Below are positions 2,235-20,449 of a stretch of DNA of 64,000 nucleotides, in pieces. Each line of letters starts with the position of its first letter. The first letter of the stretch is position 1. The notes under the pieces are model-generated. The model was given only the letters and a program-made list of their open reading frames with translations. It was not told where the DNA came from and did not search any database. The DNA lies in NCBI GenBank assembly GCA_012838545.1, contig DUPC01000017.1, forward strand, positions 9,202 to 73,201. Reading direction: 5' to 3'. A program made the translations under genes and the position numbers. Source of the stretch: Acholeplasmataceae bacterium (GTDB taxonomy: Bacteria > Bacillota_I > Bacilli_A > ML615J-28 > CAG-313).

Positions 2235-4463
2235 TTAGTCATTTTCCCTAAATTTGTCGCGTCTCTTTTTTAAGAGATTTACCCCAAAAAGCACAACAAT
2301 CAGAGCGGTAAGCCCCAGGGAAATTGTCAAAGTAAAATAATTGCTTTTCTTCTGATAACGGGAAGTGATGTTTTGAGAAAGAACTGTTATTTCCTGAGGG
2401 TTTATGGATTTACTTGTGGTATCTACTTCCAAGATAACCTCTTCAATTAACCTTCCGGATCGGTTAAAGGTAATATTGGCGAAAGAAACTTTCGTTTTGG
2501 CAAAATAACCTTGATAGATAAACAGCTGTTTTCTTTGCATGATTCCGTTGCCCCGTTCCACCAAGGAATTGATTTCTATTCGGTATATACCTTTTTCTGG
2601 TAAATTTAAATCCAATTTCTCATTTACCAAAAAAATTTGCTTGGTAACAATTGCCTGGTTATTTTTATATACTACTAATTCCAGTGCCGCCAAACTATTA
2701 TCCGGATCTCTTACGTCAAAAGTAAGTTTTAAAGCATCGGTCGCTTCTTCCTTGACGATAATCTCCGGTGCTTTTCTTAAGACCGCTGTCCTAAGGGTTT
2801 TATTGATCGGAATGACTTGACCTTGATTGCTTATAGCTTGCGTGATTTCAAAAGCAGTAACTCCTTCCTCGTTGGGGAAAAGTTCCAACATTAAAGTCTT
2901 ATCGTTTTTCGTAAATGGATGCGAAGAACCGTTAACAATTATTTGCGATATTTCCACAAAAAAAGCCAATTCCACTTGAACCGAAACACTTTTACCTTTT
3001 TCAACATAATAATCCGCTAAGATGTGACCACCTTTTCGAGGATAATTGTCAACAACATAAAACAGGAAAGTTTCTTCAAACCCATATCCGTCTAAAATTA
3101 CCAATTCGTATTCACCGGGAGTTTCGATGGTATATCCGCTCAGAATGCGTTCGCCATTTAAATGGCCTTTGCCAAAAAAAGCCAAAGTAAAAGGAATCCC
3201 GTATACACCTTGATTGATGACGTTGACATACGGTAAAACAATCACCTTTTGCGTAAGTTCGATGGTTTTTTTGTTTAAACGGTTGACTACGTAGGTTGCT
3301 AAATACTCACCCGGCAGGGTCTTCACAAAAAAAGGATCAACTTCCTTAACCTTGACAGTTAAAGGTTCAAAATAAGATTCAACATCGATATTTTTCGTTA
3401 GGTCTTCTTCATCCAGATAGGAAAGAAAAAGCGGTTCATTTTGGTTGATGTGATATTCCTCAATTGTTTTTTTGATTATTTCTTCGCCGTTTTTCAAATA
3501 AGCGACCAAACAGCCCTCCTCAATACCGAAGTCGATTAATTGGCCCTTAGCTATCGTTTTGTCATCTTCAACCATTTGATTAGCCACATCCCAAAAAACA
3601 CCTTCGGTTGTTTCCTTTAACAAAACAAAAAAACCACTCGGGGATAATATTCCCCGTATTTTTTCCAAATCATTCCACAGTATATGTTCCGTACAAGTTA
3701 AATCTAAAGCTAATCGATAATAATGATAGGCGCTTTTGGTTTGTAAGAGGAAGTAGATTCCGGTTGCGTTTATATAGGCATCGAAAGAGTGTTCGCTTCC
3801 TGCTTCATGGTTAAAGTAAACCGATTGCTCGATTTGGAAATCCCTATTTAACCGACAAACAAAAGGTTTTCTTTCCCCTTGGCTTCCGACATTGGCAAAA
3901 GGGCCATTCAAACTATGAGCATCCTTCTGACCTATGACATAAGGTATATCGTTTAACCATAACAAATGGGTAAATTGTTCAAATGCTTCCCCTCCAAAAG
4001 AGTAAGTCTTGAGTTCCGCAAAAGCATAGTTCATTTTAACAATTAAAGCATCGTTATCCTTTTCGCCCACCAGCCAAAGGTTTGCATCATGTATCTGCAT
4101 TTGATTGATTGTACCGTATGAATGCGCTTCTTTTTCCGCTTGAAAACTATTCAAACTTATTTTGTAAAGATAATCGGCTGTAGCCAGCCACAAATAGTCT
4201 TTCTCCCAAGCATGTGCTTGATAAATTCCCTCTATCGTTAAAACAAGGCTCTTATTATAGTAAAGTTTAATCAAGTTTTTTCCTTGGTTTGTTGATAACG
4301 TTAGAAAATAATCGCCCCAAATTTCCCTAATTTGTTCTTCGGTAAAAACTTTGTCCAAGAAAACTTCTTCCGTAACTTCGCTATACGCCCAAGGATTTAA
4401 AAGCGGTAGTTTTAAAAACAAAAAACAAATGAATGGGATTAACAATAAACGATATTTTTTCAT
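2235..4463 (-). CDS. Secreted, C-terminally membrane-anchored hypothetical protein (probable beta-propeller plus Ig-like domains)
   Basis: ORF 2235..4538; likely start MKKYR at 4463 with RBS AAGGTGA. Has a signal-peptide-like N-terminus, beta-rich repeats and a C-terminal TM helix with basic tail (LLKKRRDK). Shares a module with the upstream gene. Confidence 0.75.
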   Translation of the reverse strand: MKKYRLLLIPFICFLFLKLPLLNPWAYSEVTEEVFLDKVFTEEQIREIWGDYFLTLSTNQGKNLIKLYYNKSLVLTIEGIYQAHAWEKDYLWLATADYLYKISLNSFQAEKEAHSYGTINQMQIHDANLWLVGEKDNDALIVKMNYAFAELKTYSFGGEAFEQFTHLLWLNDIPYVIGQKDAHSLNGPFANVGSQGERKPFVCRLNRDFQIEQSVYFNHEAGSEHSFDAYINATGIYFLLQTKSAYHYYRLALDLTCTEHILWNDLEKIRGILSPSGFFVLLKETTEGVFWDVANQMVEDDKTIAKGQLIDFGIEEGCLVAYLKNGEEIIKKTIEEYHINQNEPLFLSYLDEEDLTKNIDVESYFEPLTVKVKEVDPFFVKTLPGEYLATYVVNRLNKKTIELTQKVIVLPYVNVINQGVYGIPFTLAFFGKGHLNGERILSGYTIETPGEYELVILDGYGFEETFLFYVVDNYPRKGGHILADYYVEKGKSVSVQVELAFFVEISQIIVNGSSHPFTKNDKTLMLELFPNEEGVTAFEITQAISNQGQVIPINKTLRTAVLRKAPEIIVKEEATDALKLTFDVRDPDNSLAALELVVYKNNQAIVTKQIFLVNEKLDLNLPEKGIYRIEINSLVERGNGIMQRKQLFIYQGYFAKTKVSFANITFNRSGRLIEEVILEVDTTSKSINPQEITVLSQNITSRYQKKSNYFTLTISLGLTALIVVLFGVNLLKKRRDKFREND

Positions 4464-4468
4464 CGTTA

Positions 4469-6439
4469 TCACCTTTTCATGCGGGCCACAAAAACCGCCC
4501 CGGCTATCAAAGCGCTTAGAGGAAGCAGCCACACCCAATCGCTTTCGGAAGTAGTTAAGAAGTTGCCGGCGTTATCAACGTTTTTTATAAAATCAAAACG
4601 GGCTTCTTCGGTATCCGTTTCTGCAACGGTTACTTTCGTGTCTGGCTTTTCTTGGGGTTCGCTAATTCCTGCTTGGAGCGAGATTTGCGCAACAGTAAAC
4701 TTTTTCGAAATGACTTGGCCGTCTTTTCCGGTTAATTCCAAAATGTAGTCACCGGTTTGATTTAGGCGAATACCGCTCACGGTTTCTTCTCCGTTAAGTT
4801 TTCCCAAACCGTTAAATTCGATTTTTACCCCCACGTCATAAACTTGATTGTTCTCCACGCTCACCGAAGGCAATACAACCCAATTTCGTCCCACAACCAG
4901 TTGAACCATGTCATGGGTAAAAACATAATAACCCGGATAGGTTCCAAACAAAGCCAAAGATTCAGGCAATTTAGATTGTGTTTCATCATGGCAAATCGTT
5001 TCGAGATTCAACATCGCTTGGTAATCGTGTTTGGGTCCTCTTTCCGTTACTTCTTCGCAACCCCAGGAATCGATTTTCAAATAATCGATTTGGACCACCG
5101 CTGTTTGTAGAATTTCCGGATTGTTTGCGATGATATAACGATAACCGCCGTTTACAAACTGCGGGTTTCGAATATTTTCGGTTTTTAATTGATAACAGGT
5201 TAAATCTGTTTCTTGTCCAAGTTGTTTATAATGGATAAACGGTTGGTTGTTATTTATCGTTAAATAACCTAAGAAACCGTTGTCCGTAACATATATATCC
5301 ACAACATTCTTTTCGAGATTTTTAAAACCATCCGCTACCTCAAAAGTTAAATCGGCTTCGACTTGATATAAGGTTTCTTTAAAACTTTGGTTGGCATAGT
5401 GGAAATAACGGACAAGCAAATAGATTTTATCGCCGGTTTTTAGAAAGTTTAAGGGAATTGACTGATAGGGATGTTGATATTTTATTTCTGAAATAATATT
5501 ACCCAAAAAATCGATTTTGACAGTTTTAAATTGGGCATAGGTTCCGTCCGGAAACGGATTGTAATTTTGCGTAAGATATAAAAAATTATCTTTCAGAACC
5601 ACATGGGAAAATAAATCGTCGCCTTCGAGAGGATAGGTTTTGACCATTTTTAAGGAAAGCGAAGATTTGTCGACTTGCGCCAAAAAGGCATCTTTGCCTT
5701 TGCGTCCTAGGTCGAACGGAGTTTCATTGGAAGTCGTCCAACCTGCCAAAAAGTACGAATTATTGCTTGCCACAAGATCCATTCCCTTTACTTCACCTTT
5801 AGTTGACAATTCAATCCGATCGATTTTTCGTGTTTCCAAATTAACCCGAAACATCCAAAGAACCCATTCGCCTTTGATGGTACGATAACGGCCTGTTCCT
5901 ACCAAGAAACCCGAATCATAGATCATCTGGGTTACTTCGGTAAAGGTGTTGTAATATAAAAGCAACGAATATTTGAGGGTATTTTCCTCCATAATGTTAA
6001 TAAAAACATTGTGAGGAGGAAATTGAGGATTACGTTCATGGTATTTGTAAGCATATGCATAGGTTTTTTCGTCAATCATGCAACTGGCATACAGTTCATC
6101 ATAATAGGTGGGATTTTCTTCGGGTACAAAAGCATTTTCCAAAAAGTATTCATTTTTATCCTTAGGGAAAACCGTTACTGGTTTTTTCACCAAAGTGCCG
6201 TCAACTGCTTGATAGGTAACCAAGTAATCACCCGGTTGGCCAAGGTTAACGTTACTATTTACAATTTGGTACCCCGAATAGGTTAATTGTTCGTAAGCGT
6301 CTACGCCTTCCACCGCCCAAAGGGGTTTTTTTACTTCTTCTATACTTACAGAATCTTCCCCAAACACAAGCATTGGAATACTTATGGACCAAATTAAGGT
6401 AAGTGTAACAATCAAAATAATGATTACGGTCTGTTTCAT
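4469..6439 (-). CDS. Secreted, C-terminally membrane-anchored hypothetical protein (N-terminal Ig-like domain, probable beta-propeller)
   Basis: ORF 4469..6457; likely start MKQTV at 6439 after RBS GAGGTG. Has a signal peptide, an Ig-like NVNLGQPGDYLVTY motif and a C-terminal TM helix. Confidence 0.75.
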   Translation of the reverse strand: MKQTVIIILIVTLTLIWSISIPMLVFGEDSVSIEEVKKPLWAVEGVDAYEQLTYSGYQIVNSNVNLGQPGDYLVTYQAVDGTLVKKPVTVFPKDKNEYFLENAFVPEENPTYYDELYASCMIDEKTYAYAYKYHERNPQFPPHNVFINIMEENTLKYSLLLYYNTFTEVTQMIYDSGFLVGTGRYRTIKGEWVLWMFRVNLETRKIDRIELSTKGEVKGMDLVASNNSYFLAGWTTSNETPFDLGRKGKDAFLAQVDKSSLSLKMVKTYPLEGDDLFSHVVLKDNFLYLTQNYNPFPDGTYAQFKTVKIDFLGNIISEIKYQHPYQSIPLNFLKTGDKIYLLVRYFHYANQSFKETLYQVEADLTFEVADGFKNLEKNVVDIYVTDNGFLGYLTINNNQPFIHYKQLGQETDLTCYQLKTENIRNPQFVNGGYRYIIANNPEILQTAVVQIDYLKIDSWGCEEVTERGPKHDYQAMLNLETICHDETQSKLPESLALFGTYPGYYVFTHDMVQLVVGRNWVVLPSVSVENNQVYDVGVKIEFNGLGKLNGEETVSGIRLNQTGDYILELTGKDGQVISKKFTVAQISLQAGISEPQEKPDTKVTVAETDTEEARFDFIKNVDNAGNFLTTSESDWVWLLPLSALIAGAVFVARMKR

Positions 6440-10505: not shown

Positions 10506-10565
10506 AAAAAATTGCCATAAGCACATTGAACCAAACGGGTTCTGTTTGCTTTATGGCAATCTTTT
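10504..10565. terminator. Bidirectional terminator between the convergent smr and gerW genes
   Basis: Inverted repeat ATTGCCATAA (10511-10520) / TTATGGCAAT (10551-10560) flanked by A and T runs. Confidence 0.7.
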
Positions 10566-10971
10566 ATTTTTCCACTTGATAAATTTCCGGTTCTTTGGTT
10601 TGTTCTGCCCTTTTAGTAAAGGCTTTTTCAATCATCCTGCTAATCGTATCGATTATTCGGTCAAATTGATGGGACGATTCGTTTAAATGCAAAACTTTGA
10701 CTTCCTTTTCTTGGCAAACCAAAAAGGCTACCGGCGTAATCAGAATGGTTCCCCCGGCTCCTCCGCCAAATGGGTAGGCATCGTCGCCATCCAAACGGTT
10801 TTTCTTTTGGTCAAATCCGCCGCTAATGAACCCACAACGAACTTTCGATACCGGAATGATAATCGACTCATGCGAGGTAATCGCATCGCCAACCACCAAA
10901 TTGACATCAACCATGGTTCCCATTTTATTGATGACGCTTTGAAGTAATTCGCTAATCGGATGTTCTTTCAT
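10564..10971 (-). CDS. gerW: GerW/YtfJ family sporulation/germination protein
   Basis: MVDVNLVVGDAIT...IIPVSKVRCGFISGG...FGGGAGG...ITPVAFLV is the YtfJ signature. Confidence 0.9.
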   Translation of the reverse strand: MKEHPISELLQSVINKMGTMVDVNLVVGDAITSHESIIIPVSKVRCGFISGGFDQKKNRLDGDDAYPFGGGAGGTILITPVAFLVCQEKEVKVLHLNESSHQFDRIIDTISRMIEKAFTKRAEQTKEPEIYQVEK

Positions 10972-11519
10972 GAAACACGCTCCTTCCTTCTAAATAGCAC
11001 TTTCGATGTGCTTTTGGGGTACTTAACCAATAAATAAAGAATATAAAAAATTCTTGTTTCAATTTCGATTTCCAAAACAATTCGTTCATTGCTTTCTTTT
11101 TCCCTATAAACAACCTGATAATAACGGTTTTTTTGAAAAACGAAATAACGGTCAATCAAAACATGAATTAAACTTAAAAATTGCCACTGTAAAAAAAGCC
11201 AATAAACATTCAATACAGGGTCATCAATATTGCGCCTTTGAATCACCGTAACTTTATTGACCCAAGATCTTCTGGCCAAGGCCTTTAAAAAATCCCTCTC
11301 TTCCCAATAAAACAAAAACTGTTTGATTGATTCTTTCAAACTTTGTTTGGAGGAATCGTTGTTTGGCGAATCATTTTCATCCAAATCGATGCGAATGTTA
11401 AAGATTCGGCTTAAAATCAAATCAACATTGAAGTCATCGCGTTTGACAATTCGTAAGCGCACCTTGATAAGTAGAAAAAATATTTGCAAAGCAATCATGC
11501 TTAAAACCAGGTAAATCAT
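10968..11519 (-). CDS. YtfI-like (DUF2953) membrane protein
   Basis: N-terminal TM helix; overlaps the gerW start (ATGA coupling), as in the ytfI-ytfJ pair. Assignment rests mainly on synteny. Confidence 0.6.
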   Translation of the reverse strand: MIYLVLSMIALQIFFLLIKVRLRIVKRDDFNVDLILSRIFNIRIDLDENDSPNNDSSKQSLKESIKQFLFYWEERDFLKALARRSWVNKVTVIQRRNIDDPVLNVYWLFLQWQFLSLIHVLIDRYFVFQKNRYYQVVYREKESNERIVLEIEIETRIFYILYLLVKYPKSTSKVLFRRKERVS

Positions 11520-11540
11520 TTCGTTTTATTCTTTCCCCAT

Positions 11541-11570
11541 ATTATACTTTTTAATCATTTTAAAACGCAA
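11541..11570 (-). promoter_or_regulatory. Promoter of ytfI-gerW (SigA-like; a SigG reading is not excluded)
   Basis: TTGCGT-N18-TATAAT. Confidence 0.45.
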
Positions 11571-11579
11571 TTTTTGGCA

Positions 11580-11620
11580 AAAATAAAAGGCGAGCAATTG
11601 ACCTTTAGCCAACAGCTCGC
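11580..11620 (-). terminator. Terminator of the lipoprotein pseudogene transcript
   Basis: GCGAGC-TGTTGGC-loop-GTCAATT-GCTCGC hairpin followed by CTTTTATTTT on the minus strand. Confidence 0.6.
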
Positions 11621-11684
11621 AATAAAGCATTTTTTTATATTCCTTTTTCTTTAAAAATCGTTTTGTTTATTCAATTTTAACCGC

Positions 11685-12110
11685 CTAATATAAAAATTCT
11701 ATAAGGTCGCGATGTGTTTTGTCCGGGTCAAAATAACGATTATTGTATGGCCTTAACCCCAAATCCCCTTTTCACATTTTTTCGCTTTCATCGTAAAGAA
11801 TTAGATAACGGAAAATCGGCGATGGGTCGATTGCAACGTCCTTCTGAATGCTTTGTATGTTACCTAAAAAAAGCTTGTCGACGACTTCCGGGATTTTTTC
11901 CTTTGGCACCGCGTATTCGATTGGTTCGCGGTATAAAAACCGTTTCCTCATTGAAAGTAAGAAAATTAATGCCCAAAACAATTCGAACCGGATTCTTGGG
12001 CAAATCACTCAGTCCTGCAAAATCGGTTATTTTCATACTTGACTGGCAACCAAGCATTAGTCCCAAACTAAATAAAAGATAATACCGATAAAAATCCATT
12101 TTTTTATCAT
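11685..12110 (-). pseudogene. Disrupted lipoprotein gene (about 140 aa when repaired)
   Basis: RBS GGAGG and ATG at 12110. Joining frames at T-tracts near 12075 and 11937 and reading through a TGA at 11772-11774 gives MIKKWIFIGIIFLFSLGLMLGC (lipobox) QSSMKITDF...LYREPIEY...DLIEFLY*. Confidence 0.7.
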
Positions 12111-12327
12111 ATTACTCAACCTCCAATTACTTTAAAAAAAAGGGGTAACTGTTCCTTTGACTTTATATATTGTAAAAAAATTTCCTTAAACCAAAATAAA
12201 ACGATTAATTGGGGTTTGAACCTTAATTAAACCATACCAAGATTTTTTTATAAAGTAACATTTTTTGTGAAAAAACAATGTTCCCCTTAAAAATATAGTA
12301 TAATTAACCGTGAAGGAGTTGCTTTTT

Positions 12328-13677
12328 ATGTCAAAGCCAAACCGACTAAACCGACAAGCAATTAAATTAATCCAATCATACCAAAAGACCAAATCCCCGA
12401 TTGGCAGCGGACATTGCAAATATTATCCGACTTGTTCCCAATATGGGCTTGACGCATATACCAAGTTTTCCTTTATCAAGGCTTCTTTATTAACCTTGTG
12501 GCGGATACTCCGTTGCAACCCGTTTTCCAAAGGCGGTTTTGATCCCGTACCTTTTACCAAGAAAGAAAAAGAACTTCAAAACAAATTTCAAAAACTATTA
12601 TCCTCACCCATTGGTGAATTAGTTTCCAATTTAATTTACCATTATCAATTATATCCCGAATCCAGAAAAACCGACCTTTTAAAAATGCTCTATCAAGCCT
12701 ATTACGGACCAAAACATTTTTTTACCGAATCCGCTTTGGACAGCATTATCCAAAACATTAAACAAGAAACCAGCGCTATAAACCGTCCTCGCCAACCCTA
12801 TACAATATTGGGAAACGGACTGATGAGAATTGATTTGGGGCAGCGTTCCAAACAGGAAATAAAAGACATTGCAAAGGGGTTTTGGGAAACTGCCAAAATG
12901 AGGTTCATCCATGATTATTCTTTTGAAGAATGTTTGGAAATGTTTCAAGAACTGATAAACTTAAAAATCATTGACATTCCCAGTCTATTTGAAGAAAACT
13001 TAACCCCTCCGTATTCCCATAGTAAAGAATTCAAAACTCTTTACGACCCCCATTATCGCTTGCTTCATGTCTCAACCGTTCCCCCTTATTTAATCGTTAA
13101 CGATCTCAAAACAAAAATAGCGGAACTCCTTCAAACGCAAGATCAAGTCATCCTTGCGATTGAGGGTCCCGCAGCCAGCGGCAAGTCCACTCTTGCCCAA
13201 TATTTAGCCGCCCATTTAAAGGCGACAGTCATTTCCACTGATGATTTCTTTTTGCCCCCGAAGTTACGCACCAAAAAGCGTTTGAAGAACCCCGCAGGAA
13301 ATATCCACTACGAACGTTTGCTTAAAGAAGTGCTAGTTCCCTTAAAACAAGGAAAATTAACCACGTACAAACGTTTCGATTGCACGGAAAACTCCTTTAA
13401 AGAAGTCAATGTTACCCCCAACAAGATTTATATTATTGAAGGAGTGTACAGTTTTCATCCCGTCTTTCAGCCTTTCATCGATTTATTGGCTTATTGCGAA
13501 GTGGATGAAGAAACGCAAAAGGAGCGCTTAAAAGCAAGGTCGACCCCAGAAATTTATGAAGCCTTTTTGACTAAATGGCTTCCCTTGGAAAAAAGATATT
13601 TCCCAAGCCAAACCTTTAAGTTTCCGGGCGCCTTTATCATCCCCCAAGGTTTTAAAGTCCCTGATTTTACTGATTAG
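12328..13677 (+). CDS. Fusion protein: YidD (membrane protein insertion efficiency factor) + unknown domain + uridine-kinase-like P-loop domain
   Basis: N-terminal CKYYPTCSQYG...RILRCNPFSKGGFDPVP is YidD. The middle domain includes LKMLYQAYYGPKH and HSKEFKTLYDPHYRL. The C-terminus has IEGPAASGKST, STDDFF and IIEGVYS. One continuous ORF; start MSKPN at 12328 after AAGGAG. Confidence 0.85.
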   Translation: MSKPNRLNRQAIKLIQSYQKTKSPIGSGHCKYYPTCSQYGLDAYTKFSFIKASLLTLWRILRCNPFSKGGFDPVPFTKKEKELQNKFQKLLSSPIGELVSNLIYHYQLYPESRKTDLLKMLYQAYYGPKHFFTESALDSIIQNIKQETSAINRPRQPYTILGNGLMRIDLGQRSKQEIKDIAKGFWETAKMRFIHDYSFEECLEMFQELINLKIIDIPSLFEENLTPPYSHSKEFKTLYDPHYRLLHVSTVPPYLIVNDLKTKIAELLQTQDQVILAIEGPAASGKSTLAQYLAAHLKATVISTDDFFLPPKLRTKKRLKNPAGNIHYERLLKEVLVPLKQGKLTTYKRFDCTENSFKEVNVTPNKIYIIEGVYSFHPVFQPFIDLLAYCEVDEETQKERLKARSTPEIYEAFLTKWLPLEKRYFPSQTFKFPGAFIIPQGFKVPDFTD

Positions 13678-14836
13678 GGGCTTTTTCTATTTTCTTAATC
13701 GCTTTGATGAGTATATCTATTCCTTGCCCGAGCTGACGAAAACTGCAAGCCAGGTTAAACCGGATAAAGCCTTGATAGTCCGCTCCAAAAGTGCTGCCGT
13801 CGTTAACGGTTATGCCTTCTTGAGATAAGCAGTTTACCAGTTCCTGACTGGTGCGGTTTAGATAAGTTAAATTAATCCAAGCAAGGTATGTGCCTTCTAA
13901 ACTTGCCACTTGGGCTTGAGGAAGGTCTTTACTTAGTTTTTTCCTTAAATAATTATAGTTGGTCCAAAGGTGTTTGTTTTGGGCAATCACCCATTTTTCT
14001 CCTTTAGTGTAAGCCGTTTGCGTTCCCAAAATTCCATAAACATTTAGCCCCGGCAAAAAAGCGGAAGTTAAATGTTCTTGGTATTTGTTGCGTAGTTGGG
14101 GGTTTTTGATGATAACATAAGCGCTCTTTAGCCCCGCCAGGTTGAAGGTTTTGCTGGGGGCTGTACTCACCATGACCAAATGTTCCTCCTTCGTCAAACT
14201 GTTCATGGAAACAAAGCGGTATTTTGGCATGATGATATCGCCATGGATTTCATCGCTGATTAAAAGGACTTGATATTTTTGACATAAAGTTAGAACTTGT
14301 TCAAGTTCTTCTTTTTGCCACACCCGACCAACCGGATTATGAGGGCTACAAAGCACCATCATTTTGACGCCATTTTTGAACTTCTCTTCCAAATCCTCAA
14401 AATCCATTTCGTACCGATTGTTTTCAATTCGCAACTTGTTTTCCACAAGAATTCTTTTCGACAAAGTAACGACCCGCTGAAATTGAAAATACACCGGGGT
14501 CTGGATTAAGACTTTGTCGCCGGGGTTTGTCCAAAGTTCAAGCGCTTGTTTTATGGAGGCAACTACCCCGGGAATAGGAATTATCCATTCTTTGGCAATT
14601 TTGGTTTCGTACCTTTTTTGATGCCAACCGATGATAGCTTGATAATAATCGTCCTGTAACATCTGGTAGCCAAAATGCCCTTGCTCACTGCGCTGTATAA
14701 AGGCTTTCACAATTTCCGGAGCAGTTTCATAATCTGAATCCGCCACCCAAAAAGGAAGAGCGTTCGGATTTTTTTGTCCATCCCATTTGTAAGTTCCGGT
14801 ATTTTTCCGCTTATGGCCTTCCAAAAAATAATTCAC
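13667..14836 (-). CDS. patB: MalY/PatB family PLP-dependent C-S lyase (cystathionine beta-lyase-like)
   Basis: PFWVADSD, LCSPHNPVGRVW, ISDEIHGD, PLP lysine in APSKTFNLAGL, EGTYLAW and FIRFNLAC. Confidence 0.93.
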   Translation of the reverse strand: MNYFLEGHKRKNTGTYKWDGQKNPNALPFWVADSDYETAPEIVKAFIQRSEQGHFGYQMLQDDYYQAIIGWHQKRYETKIAKEWIIPIPGVVASIKQALELWTNPGDKVLIQTPVYFQFQRVVTLSKRILVENKLRIENNRYEMDFEDLEEKFKNGVKMMVLCSPHNPVGRVWQKEELEQVLTLCQKYQVLLISDEIHGDIIMPKYRFVSMNSLTKEEHLVMVSTAPSKTFNLAGLKSAYVIIKNPQLRNKYQEHLTSAFLPGLNVYGILGTQTAYTKGEKWVIAQNKHLWTNYNYLRKKLSKDLPQAQVASLEGTYLAWINLTYLNRTSQELVNCLSQEGITVNDGSTFGADYQGFIRFNLACSFRQLGQGIDILIKAIKKIEKAPNQ

Positions 14837-18831: not shown

Positions 18832-19548
18832 CTAAGCTTTCTCTTTGAGTTTTCCAAGATTAAATGTTTTGGTATCTTTTTTGATTTTGGGGGCGAATAG
18901 CCCTTTTTTTGGTTCATCAACAATTTTGTACAAGACTGTTTCTTTTTTAAATAGCACACAGCCTAAGACCTTACTTCCTTGGCGGATTTCTTCGTAGACC
19001 AAATCCCCGACCAAGTTGTTTAATAGAGTTAGGATTGCTGCATAAAGTTTTTCGGTGGGGAAATGTTCAAATCCCCGGGAATCGTATTTGGATAAATCAT
19101 CGAACATTTTGCTAAAGTAGAAGTTATACTTAACAAAAGTATCGATTAAGGAAACGTTTGCCTTATGGGCATCAAAAACGATTTTTATTTGATTGTTAAT
19201 ATTAATGACAATTTCTGCAGCTCCCTCATCAACTTGCACCCAACCGAACAGCCCTTTTAGGGGTTGTACCAGGTTGGACTGAAAAACAGAAGTTGTCACA
19301 TCATTTTTAATTTGCACAAAGCAACCGCTTTTTCGGGCTGCTTTTTGTCTTTTTATCCTTCGGCGATGGCGAAAACTAAGCAGTTTTAACCATAAAGGAG
19401 GTAAAAAGAACAGCAAAAGAAAAATTACCGAACTGCCGTGTTGAAAGTGAAAATTATTGATAAACCTAAAAACGATAAGAACAATTATCCACCAGATTAA
19501 GATCAGGTAATTGTGATAGAGGATAATTTTACTTTTTAAGTTCGACAT
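18832..19548 (-). CDS. Hypothetical membrane protein (two N-terminal TM helices)
   Basis: 238-aa ORF overlapping the psuG 3' end; hydrophobic segments followed by a basic patch. Confidence 0.6.
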   Translation of the reverse strand: MSNLKSKIILYHNYLILIWWIIVLIVFRFINNFHFQHGSSVIFLLLFFLPPLWLKLLSFRHRRRIKRQKAARKSGCFVQIKNDVTTSVFQSNLVQPLKGLFGWVQVDEGAAEIVININNQIKIVFDAHKANVSLIDTFVKYNFYFSKMFDDLSKYDSRGFEHFPTEKLYAAILTLLNNLVGDLVYEEIRQGSKVLGCVLFKKETVLYKIVDEPKKGLFAPKIKKDTKTFNLGKLKEKA

Positions 19549-20449
19549 ACTCTTTCGCGATTTGGGCAGCCAACAAGCAGTTGTTGTAAACTAATTGGAT
19601 ATTGGCTTTTAAGCTTTGACCTTGGGTTATTTCTTTTACGCTTTGAAGCAAATAAGGCGTTGTTTCCTTTCCCTTGATACCCAATTTTTCCATTTCCTCA
19701 ACCGCTTTATCGATAGCCTCATTCATCAGTTTTTCGTTCATTGAGTATTGATTAGGAATAGGATTGGCTACCACCGTTCCTCCTTGCAAGCCCAACTCTT
19801 CTTTCACTTTAACCAATGAAGCTATTTCTTTAGGCGAATCGGCTCTTAAGGTTAATTCATAAGGGCTTTTTCTGGTATAAAAGGCGGGAAAATAATTCGT
19901 TTGATAACCAATAACCGGAACGCCTTTGGTTTCTAAATACTCAAGCGTTTTTTCCAAATCCAAAATAGCTTTGGCTCCCGCGCAAATAACGCAAACATCG
20001 GTTTTGGCCAATTCTTCAAGATCGGCGGAAATATCAAAGGAGGATTCCGCTCCCCGGTGCACTCCCCCGATACCGCCAGTCGCAAAAAACTTTATCCCTG
20101 CTGAGTGGGCAATTATCATGGTAGCGCTGACGGTTGTTGCCCCATCTTTTTTTTGCGCTACGATGTAGGGTAAGTCCCGGCGCGAAGTTTTGATGACTTT
20201 TGCCCCTTTTCTTCCCAGTTCATCAATCTCTTCCACGGACAAACCCACAACCAACTCGCCGTTTAAAATGGCGATGGTAGCGGGAATGCAGCCAACTTCG
20301 CGGATAATGCGTTCGCACTCGAGTGCGGTTTGAACATTTTCAGGATAAGGCATCCCGTGGCTGATGATGGTCGATTCCAAAGCAACCACAGGCTTATTGT
20401 TTTTTAAAGCATCCACAATTTCCGGATTAAGCTTTAAATATTTATTCAC
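19529..20449 (-). CDS. psuG: Pseudouridine-5'-phosphate glycosidase
   Basis: VALESTIISHGMPYP, ATTVSAT, FATGGIGGVHRGAESSFDISADL, GAKAILD and GKETTPYLL. Confidence 0.97.
   Translation of the reverse strand: MNKYLKLNPEIVDALKNNKPVVALESTIISHGMPYPENVQTALECERIIREVGCIPATIAILNGELVVGLSVEEIDELGRKGAKVIKTSRRDLPYIVAQKKDGATTVSATMIIAHSAGIKFFATGGIGGVHRGAESSFDISADLEELAKTDVCVICAGAKAILDLEKTLEYLETKGVPVIGYQTNYFPAFYTRKSPYELTLRADSPKEIASLVKVKEELGLQGGTVVANPIPNQYSMNEKLMNEAIDKAVEEMEKLGIKGKETTPYLLQSVKEITQGQSLKANIQLVYNNCLLAAQIAKEYVELKK

Follow-up and report, generated by a model that had tools for sequence, protein, structure and literature searches.

Background

YidD is a small peripheral protein of the inner membrane, conserved across bacteria and implicated in the YidC-dependent insertion of membrane proteins, and what is known of its function is limited to a mild "insertion efficiency" effect. 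It is usually a stand-alone protein; in Proteobacteria its gene occurs in the order rnpA-yidD-yidC. YidD has been listed among the SecYEG/YidC-associated factors, with reference to Yu et al. 2011 (PMC8082313). The yidD gene analyzed here is located in a stretch of 64,000 nucleotides, referred to as the window (contig DUPC01000017.1, positions 9,202 to 73,201; assembly GCA_012838545.1), from an Acholeplasmataceae bacterium assigned by GTDB to the order ML615J-28 and the family CAG-313. The genome (G000) has been assembled as a draft of 1.71 Mb in 65 contigs with a completeness of 96%. The reading frame of this yidD continues beyond YidD through a domain that we designate M into a P-loop kinase domain, designated K.

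The second group of described systems to which the locus may be compared are pairs of a small importer, of the S-component or PnuC type, and a kinase, among them ThiW/ThiM, PdxU/PdxK and PnuC with NadR through its kinase domain. In the similar CblT/CblS pair of alpha-ribazole salvage the imported vitamin precursor is trapped through its phosphorylation by the kinase (PMC6167548, PMC6461909).

In this work we have analyzed the YidD-M-K protein, its relatives and their gene neighbourhoods. In the best explanation of the whole, to which we give an even chance, K would be the trapping kinase of an uptake system of the energy-coupling factor (ECF) type, M a ligand-binding domain and YidD the part that holds the protein at the membrane.

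Results and discussion

A conserved three-domain reading frame

The plus strand of the window contains between 12310/12328 and 13677 one open frame of 455 or 449 amino acids without a stop or a frameshift. ATG 12328 is the likely start codon, as judged from its spacing to the Shine-Dalgarno motif (Table 1). The original prediction, made from the DNA sequence alone, parsed the product into a complete YidD, a middle domain and a P-loop kinase in one frame; this parse was confirmed by the Pfam and NCBIfam searches and by the open reading frame (ORF), in which the quoted motifs CNPFSKGGFDP, LKMLYQAYYGPKH, HSKEFKTLYDPHYR and EGVYS are all found.

In a draft of 65 contigs such a frame might arise from a chimeric contig or from a sequencing error deleting the stop codon between two genes. 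However, a second species of the genus has the same continuous three-domain ORF (G001, 67% identity), and a database search revealed five clusters with the full YidD-M-K architecture (P0001-P0005; 446-450 amino acids, 41-100% identity), of which the metagenomic ones, P0002-P0005, are 41-67% identical to the window protein and come from several independent assemblies. P0005 is represented on eight contigs from independent samples with synteny kept, and it shares with the window the gene order HI0933-like flavoprotein, YtfJ, small membrane protein, fusion, aminotransferase, DUF960 and endonuclease I. Since the ORF recurs in a second species and in independent metagenomic clusters, the fusion is not an assembly accident and the three-part protein is real; an artefact is effectively refuted and keeps a vanishingly small probability.

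The identity to the window protein amounts to 57-82% in YidD, 33-55% in M and 42-74% in K, so all three parts are under constraint. Downstream of the start codon the next Met in frame is residue 120, inside M, and a separate M-K product is therefore not expected. The triple fusion is rare, having been found in the window genus and three metagenomic clusters.

The YidD domain and its junction with M

The YidD part matches PF01809 (Pfam) over model positions 3-67 of 67 with E 8e-25 and 86.9 bits against a cut-off of 27, and TIGR00278 (NCBIfam) with 66.7 bits against a cut-off of 40. It thus resembles the YidD of E. coli in matching both models at full length above their cut-offs and in its Cys and GG-DP motifs; the conserved Cys residues and the C-terminal GG-DP motif (GHCKYYPTCSQYG ... 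RCNPFSKGGFDPVP) are kept in all five fusion clusters. In contrast to stand-alone YidDs (70-130 amino acids), the window protein carries an additional C-terminal enzyme module of 375 amino acids and is not encoded beside yidC. A genome-wide search for a second yidD, a check proposed in the original prediction, found none: the fusion gene is the sole yidD of the genome, and the single yidC lies on a different contig.

The stretch PFTKKEKELQNKFQK had been taken for a linker between YidD and M. The C-termini of stand-alone YidDs from the same order read DPVPLTKEEKRLMQ..., DPVPLTKLEKKLKN... and DPVPLSRKEKQALKK... (DPVPLTKEEK/LTKLEKK/LSRKEK tails), which shows the stretch to be instead the native basic C-terminal tail of YidD, with the next domain joined on.

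The kinase domain

Profile matches to P-loop kinases extend over residues ~263-440 (AAA_33 and PRK weakly, PRK06547 with E 3e-14, udk with E 1e-7). The Walker A motif GPAASGKS is encoded at ~13165-13188 and DDFF at 13240-13251, followed by the IIEGVYS strand. A profile search of PDB sequences with K returned 1rz3, a "possible uridine kinase" of Geobacillus, with E 5e-16, and then uridine kinases, phosphoribulokinases and NRK1. For the complete window protein, AlphaFold gave a model with a predicted local distance difference test (pLDDT) score of 86. When this model was compared with PDB by Foldseek, matches ran through the kinase part only: 1rz3, Thermus Udk, UCK2, PRK and NRK1 were found with E 1e-9 to 1e-6 and target TM of 0.6-0.7, those to Udk, UCK2, PRK and NRK1 with probability 1.0. 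Invariant among 39 homologues of K are the Walker A Lys, DDFFL, GGN-HYER, EG-Y(S), two Arg residues of the lid and W-P-E-Y.

K has the P-loop fold, the Walker A motif and the EG strand in common with Udk/UCK, NRK1, PRK and 1rz3, and its D-D-F-F strand is like that of NRK1. It differs from these enzymes in falling far below every equivalog cut-off (31.4 vs 220.3 bits for udk, TIGR00235; 27.9 vs 180 for PRK05480; 53 vs 173 for PRK06547), in motifs of its own, GGN-HYER and WIP-E-YF, and in being preceded by M. The match to PF00485 is also weak (15.8 bits vs a cut-off of 22). On the grounds of sequence and model, K is an intact predicted small-molecule kinase of an uncharacterised subfamily within the uridine-kinase/PRK/NRK superfamily; both its catalytic activity and its substrate class are inferred.

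The description of K as "uridine-kinase-like" in the original prediction holds for the fold and fails for the identity as a uridine kinase, given the udk score and a canonical Udk of 211 amino acids (PF00485, 132 bits) encoded elsewhere in the genome, beside hpt on contig C12 of G000. A role as the housekeeping uridine kinase was rejected on account of this Udk. Pantothenate kinase as a necessity was rejected as well: the type I model TIGR00554 gives K 18-19 bits against a cut-off of 235, and a type III enzyme (PF03309) is encoded in 39 of 41 genomes, including G000.

The M domain

Searches of Pfam with 15 stand-alone M members gave no consistent match at E<=10 (at most 2 of the 15 share a family, best E 0.02), those of NCBIfam nothing consistent at E<=1, and a profile search of PDB sequences with M no match (best E 0.12). 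Modelled alone by AlphaFold with 42 homologues, M gives a pLDDT of 93 and a predicted TM-score of 0.88, with helices and a three-stranded sheet; a Foldseek search of this model against PDB found no fold match (best E 0.79). When 1.84 billion cluster representatives were searched with an M profile, 3,535 proteins matched at E<=1e-3 and 2,433 at E<=1e-10; the family numbers at least 3,535 clusters at 50% identity. By these searches and its predicted model, M is an uncatalogued and widespread domain, absent from Pfam and NCBIfam and without a fold match in PDB.

In an alignment of 39 sequences the residues D116, K119, Q123, H130, R167, H231, S232, P241, Y243 and R244 are invariant, and they are also kept in the other architectures inspected. 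The proteins in which M is found (Table 1) include fusions to the DNA-binding domain of MerR and to an ion channel, a spectrum expected of a ligand-binding module. To judge from conserved residues and predicted structure, M most likely forms a small-molecule binding site and would bind a ligand there.

Further "Rosetta stone" links of M are its pairings with DUF362 and with an aldo-keto reductase (AKR) carrying 4Fe-4S domains. In another organism an AKR-4Fe-4S gene lies 2 nt behind a solo M gene (L110:5001-6705).

M-K proteins and the ECF S component

The original prediction placed the last two domains as a pair in clostridial proteins, and the pair is indeed found in at least 595 genome loci and ~400 protein clusters. 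The clostridial M-K proteins, annotated as "AAA family ATPase", "uridine kinase" or hypothetical, are homologous to residues 95-440 of the window protein with 30-37% identity, and all invariant residues are common to both. They differ in the absence of YidD and in their usual position behind a gene for an ECF S component and a conserved leader.

Gene neighbourhoods were counted in the best 80 of the at least 595 loci. A gene for an S component of ~180 amino acids (PF12822, E 1e-15 to 1e-21) lies directly upstream of M-K in 35 of them, and 31 of these 35 S genes overlap M-K or sit within ~40 nt of it on the same strand; in 45 of the 80 loci the S component is at most three genes away. In Thermoclostridium stercorarium a stand-alone M gene overlaps the same kind of S gene, so the link to S holds for M as well as for K. 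Among 40 relatives of the window genome, two encode S and K as one polypeptide of 376-379 amino acids (G007, L113:1944-3083; G018, L115:1394-2524), whose gene is overlapped by a DUF362 gene upstream and is divergent from genes for PnuC-like (PF04973) and FMN-reductase-like proteins. In G006, G034, G038 and G040 the gene for S and that for K or M-K lie side by side in divergent orientation. As judged by sequence, the S component of the M-K loci is without a close characterised relative: FolT-family and RibU models match its subfamily weakly, and PDB gave no match.

Another recurrent operon partner of S and M-K is DUF3842 (~135 amino acids), found near M-K in 18 of the 80 loci and often overlapping it by 4 nt (L054, L064, L073, L082, L084, L094 and others). 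The literature search found no paper on the function of DUF3842.

Upstream of the S-M-K and S-M operons a leader is kept in at least 11 clostridial loci and in T. stercorarium (Table 1). It consists of two hairpins with AUGAAG loops, and its core ATACCATGAAGGTAT can alternatively pair with the downstream CATGGTAT and a U-run terminator. In a search of 11 genomes for the 14-nt core the full leader was found at S-M-K only. The leader matches no Rfam family, and the window gene is without it. A riboswitch upstream of the window gene was rejected, as the Rfam search gave no riboswitch in the window, no match in the 790-nt spacer upstream of the fusion gene, and no riboswitch in 14 S-M-K loci.

Because M-K is usually co-translated with a dedicated S component, and K is fused to S in some relatives, M-K may be regarded as the cytoplasmic part of a salvage system that takes up and traps its substrate. 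The S component would import a micronutrient, possibly a riboside-like one, K would phosphorylate the imported compound at the membrane, and M would bind either the substrate of K or an effector. This reading is analogous to PnuC with NadR. It is likewise analogous to CblT/CblS (PMC6167548, PMC6461909), the likeness being one of gene-pairing logic: the S-M-K operons and the S::K fusions follow the logic of an importer with a trapping kinase, and the MerR-M-K variant parallels the helix-turn-helix, enzyme and kinase layout of NadR. Different from such pairs are the additional M domain, which has no counterpart there, and, in the window, the missing importer gene and the attached YidD.

In the family of the window M became joined to YidD. 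The window genus, in which both G000 and G001 have EcfT, would have lost its dedicated S component, and the YidD fusion would then supply the membrane proximity: without a cognate S, the most plausible role of YidD is to hold M-K on the cytoplasmic side of the membrane, beside the present carrier of the substrate. That YidD could tether the kinase to the membrane was already suggested in the original prediction, and we consider it a reasonable inference. Indirect support comes from the physical or genetic ties that M and K have elsewhere to a subunit of a membrane transporter.

The single S::K polypeptides suggest a physically coupled machine that would import and phosphorylate. An extended proposal, which we think quite unlikely, is that M is an unrecognised, widespread, membrane-acting ligand domain which with S and K would form such a machine, that YidD would act in or under this pathway, and that the ligand would be a new salvaged cofactor precursor.

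YidD fusions in the window family and beyond

The original prediction knew of no YidD fusion, but such proteins are present in sequence databases: ~90 clusters of YidD-M and five of YidD-M-K are on record, unnamed or called "insertion efficiency factor", together with the rare fusions YidD-YidC (260-418 amino acids), YidD-Tim44-like and YidD-ZnuA (P0122-P0126). The literature search found no paper on YidD fusions.

Most genera of the window family carry YidD-M or a decayed remnant of it. The YidD ORF has 178-457 amino acids in 17 of the 24 genomes of this family, all 17 with YidD-M or a remnant, vs 0 of the 16 genomes of the sister family, in all of which YidD stands alone (87-137 amino acids). 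As classified with hidden Markov models, YidD is followed by M-K in the window genus. Elsewhere the extension is an M that is intact in G005, G017 and G024 and degenerate in G003, G015 and G022; in ten others it is not recognisable as M, but the first helix still recalls D-x2-K-x3-Q. The YidD genes of the family all occupy the same site, divergent from the membrane-protein/YtfJ pair, and their YidD parts are therefore orthologous.

In the K tree all triple-fusion kinases fall on one side of a split supported with 98/88, consistent with one old origin of the triple fusions. In the M tree the triple-fusion M domains form a 100/99 clade grouping with M-K proteins. The M domains of YidD-M group with stand-alone M proteins from metagenome-assembled genomes (MAGs) labelled Izemoplasmatales or Acholeplasmataceae; the nearest named stand-alone M proteins are from MAGs of Izemoplasmatales, Acholeplasmataceae and Bacilli. 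A single origin of the YidD-M junction was not rejected by the approximately unbiased test (p 0.074).

The three parts might have no joint function at all, a rearrangement having put an M or M-K gene behind yidD, with the stop codon lost and the parts working independently, kept together for want of selection to split them. We regard this as unlikely. It would accommodate the separate location of yidD and M-K in the sister family, on different contigs, the degeneration of the extension behind YidD in many genera, and the rare YidD fusions to unrelated proteins (Tim44-like, ZnuA). Against it, the triple fusion persists down to 41% identity with all domains and the invariant residues of M and K intact, YidD has in this order been joined to M, once or twice, and to nothing else, and other associations of M are also with membrane proteins.

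Alternatively, M could be a general sensor of small molecules, in a role like that of ACT, GAF or CBS, which would regulate YidD and so the YidC-assisted insertion of, for example, S components, with K making or removing the ligand. The same invariant residues are found in M domains fused to the MerR helix-turn-helix, an ion channel, DUF2339, YidD and unrelated enzymes; YidD-M without K is the commonest YidD fusion, and the YidD-YidC fusions support a real link between these two proteins. Nevertheless regulation of YidD activity is not known from any organism, the M attached to YidD decays in many genera while YidD stays intact, and M and K are linked most strongly to the ECF S component, not to YidC. 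We therefore consider a sensor of this kind doubtful.

Several observations weigh against the preferred explanation, in which K traps an imported compound, M binds a ligand and YidD holds the protein at the membrane. The partners of M are very diverse (DUF362, AKR with Fe-S, hydrolase, channel, MerR), which fits a general sensor better than a substrate domain specific to one pathway. An S component of this subfamily was not found in G000 or G001, so that in the window genus the transporter link is one by homology only. S occurs without K in G005, G008 and G012, and K without S in G013, G016, G017 and G024. In many genera the YidD extension has lost the invariant residues of M or is undetectable as M, showing that the YidD-M link can decay. 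The M tree moreover parts the M of the triple fusions from that of YidD-M, and one origin or two are both possible.

Pseudouridine and nickel-pincer cofactor as candidate substrates

A pseudouridine-5'-phosphate glycosidase gene, psuG, is located ~6 kb from the fusion gene (19529-20449, minus strand), without an adjacent PfkB gene, and its synteny with yidD is family-wide. K might accordingly be a nucleoside kinase for uridine or pseudouridine that feeds PsuG; in its fold and its DDFF motif it is similar to uridine kinase and NRK, and PsuG and M-K occur together with no clear PfkB in G016 (one weak PfkB match), G038 and G040. However, M-K is present in the PsuG-less G028 and G031 and missing from many genomes with PsuG, PsuG was found in 0 of the 80 clostridial M-K neighbourhoods, and G000 has, besides the canonical Udk, two PfkB kinases. 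The synteny of PsuG and yidD is also seen where YidD is unfused and therefore reflects common descent. A nucleoside kinase of this type is very improbable, and a pseudouridine kinase feeding PsuG was rejected on the phyletic pattern and on the synteny with unfused YidD; pseudouridine as a substrate, raised in the original prediction, thus finds no support. The distance between PsuG and yidD is 0.8-6.6 kb in at least 13 genomes of the family, with fused and unfused YidD alike, and a PfkB gene stands directly beside PsuG in G009 and G039 only.

Salvage of the nickel-pincer cofactor was rejected for the window organism: G000 is without LarA, and K is found in 15 of 22 LarA-positive vs 10 of 19 LarA-negative genomes, a weak association. 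The full leader occurred only at S-M-K (11 genomes). In Clostridia such salvage may exist, but no sign of it was seen. In the window order genes of the LarA type (Lar_N, ~430 amino acids) are present in 22 of 41 genomes and the LarC insertase (PF01969) in 0 of 41; the LarA-positive genomes may rely on an external nickel-pincer cofactor or on another maturation route.

Local organization

The features of the fusion gene, the architectures of M and the leader loci are listed in Table 1. A TATAAT-like hexamer at 12299-12304, read by eye, is a possible -10 box; a promoter scan of the plus strand found no full sigma-70 match. The convergent aminotransferase gene (13667-14836, minus strand) overlaps the fusion gene by 11 nt at the 3' ends (13667-13677), inside the common hairpin. 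The divergent membrane-protein/YtfJ pair is kept family-wide as the neighbour of the yidD fusion; it is context, with no functional tie implied. The spacer that separates the fusion gene from the divergent membrane-protein gene is unusually long, at ~790 nt (11520-12309). It holds an ORF of 79 amino acids (11860-12099, minus strand) with the lipobox-like start LFSLGLMLGC, which may represent either a gene for a small lipoprotein or a remnant.

Table 1 Features of the fusion locus, architectures containing M, and loci of the conserved leader (positions without a locus label are those of the window)
Feature	Position or length	Strand	Remarks
YidD-M-K ORF	12328..13677, stop codon included	+	449 aa; orthologues with identical architecture
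Shine-Dalgarno GAAGGAG	12312..12318	+	9 nt 5' of ATG 12328
YidD domain, aa 10-74	12355..12549	+	PF01809 and TIGR00278 full-length; three conserved Cys and GGFDP intact
Basic YidD tail PVPFTKKEKELQNKFQK...	12550..12609	+	joins YidD to M; resembles tails of stand-alone YidDs
M domain, aa ~95-262	12610..13113	+	uncatalogued alpha/beta domain, ~170 aa
K domain, aa 263-449	13114..13674	+	P-loop kinase, uridine-kinase/PRK/NRK fold; profile and structure matches
Terminator-like hairpin	13654..13684	+	stop codon of the fusion ORF within the hairpin
Divergent pair	10564..11519	-	183-aa membrane protein (10968-11519) and YtfJ-family protein (10564-10971)
M alone	160-190 aa		many examples
M-K	~350 aa		clostridial proteins
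YidD-M	~250 aa		~90 clusters
YidD-M-K	~450 aa		window, P0002-P0005
MerR-M-K	486 aa		P0343
Ion-channel membrane domain-M	394 aa		P0380
M-alpha/beta hydrolase	423 aa		P0385
M-DUF2339 membrane protein	830 aa		P0346
M-DUF362	454 aa		G002, L143:340-1704
M-aldo-keto reductase-4Fe4S	549 aa		G008, L144:300-1949
Leader loci	L031, L045, L053, L057, L061, L072, L078, L081, L089; L109:~4314-4470		variants L039, L091

Conclusions

A sole YidD that is obligatorily fused to an enzyme module provides a concrete handle on where and with what YidD acts. If the coupled import-and-phosphorylation proposal were true, YidD would take part in, or be controlled by, a metabolite pathway. The analysis has also exposed M as a large uncharacterised family: it counts at least 3,500 clusters at 50% identity, has polar residues that are invariant, and is without a relative of known structure. 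Together with K and a dedicated ECF S component, M forms a salvage-type module that is common in Clostridia of the gut and rumen. The identity of its substrate would assign a function to hundreds of proteins annotated as "AAA family ATPase / uridine kinase / hypothetical", and would add a route of nutrient exchange to models of cross-feeding in gut communities.

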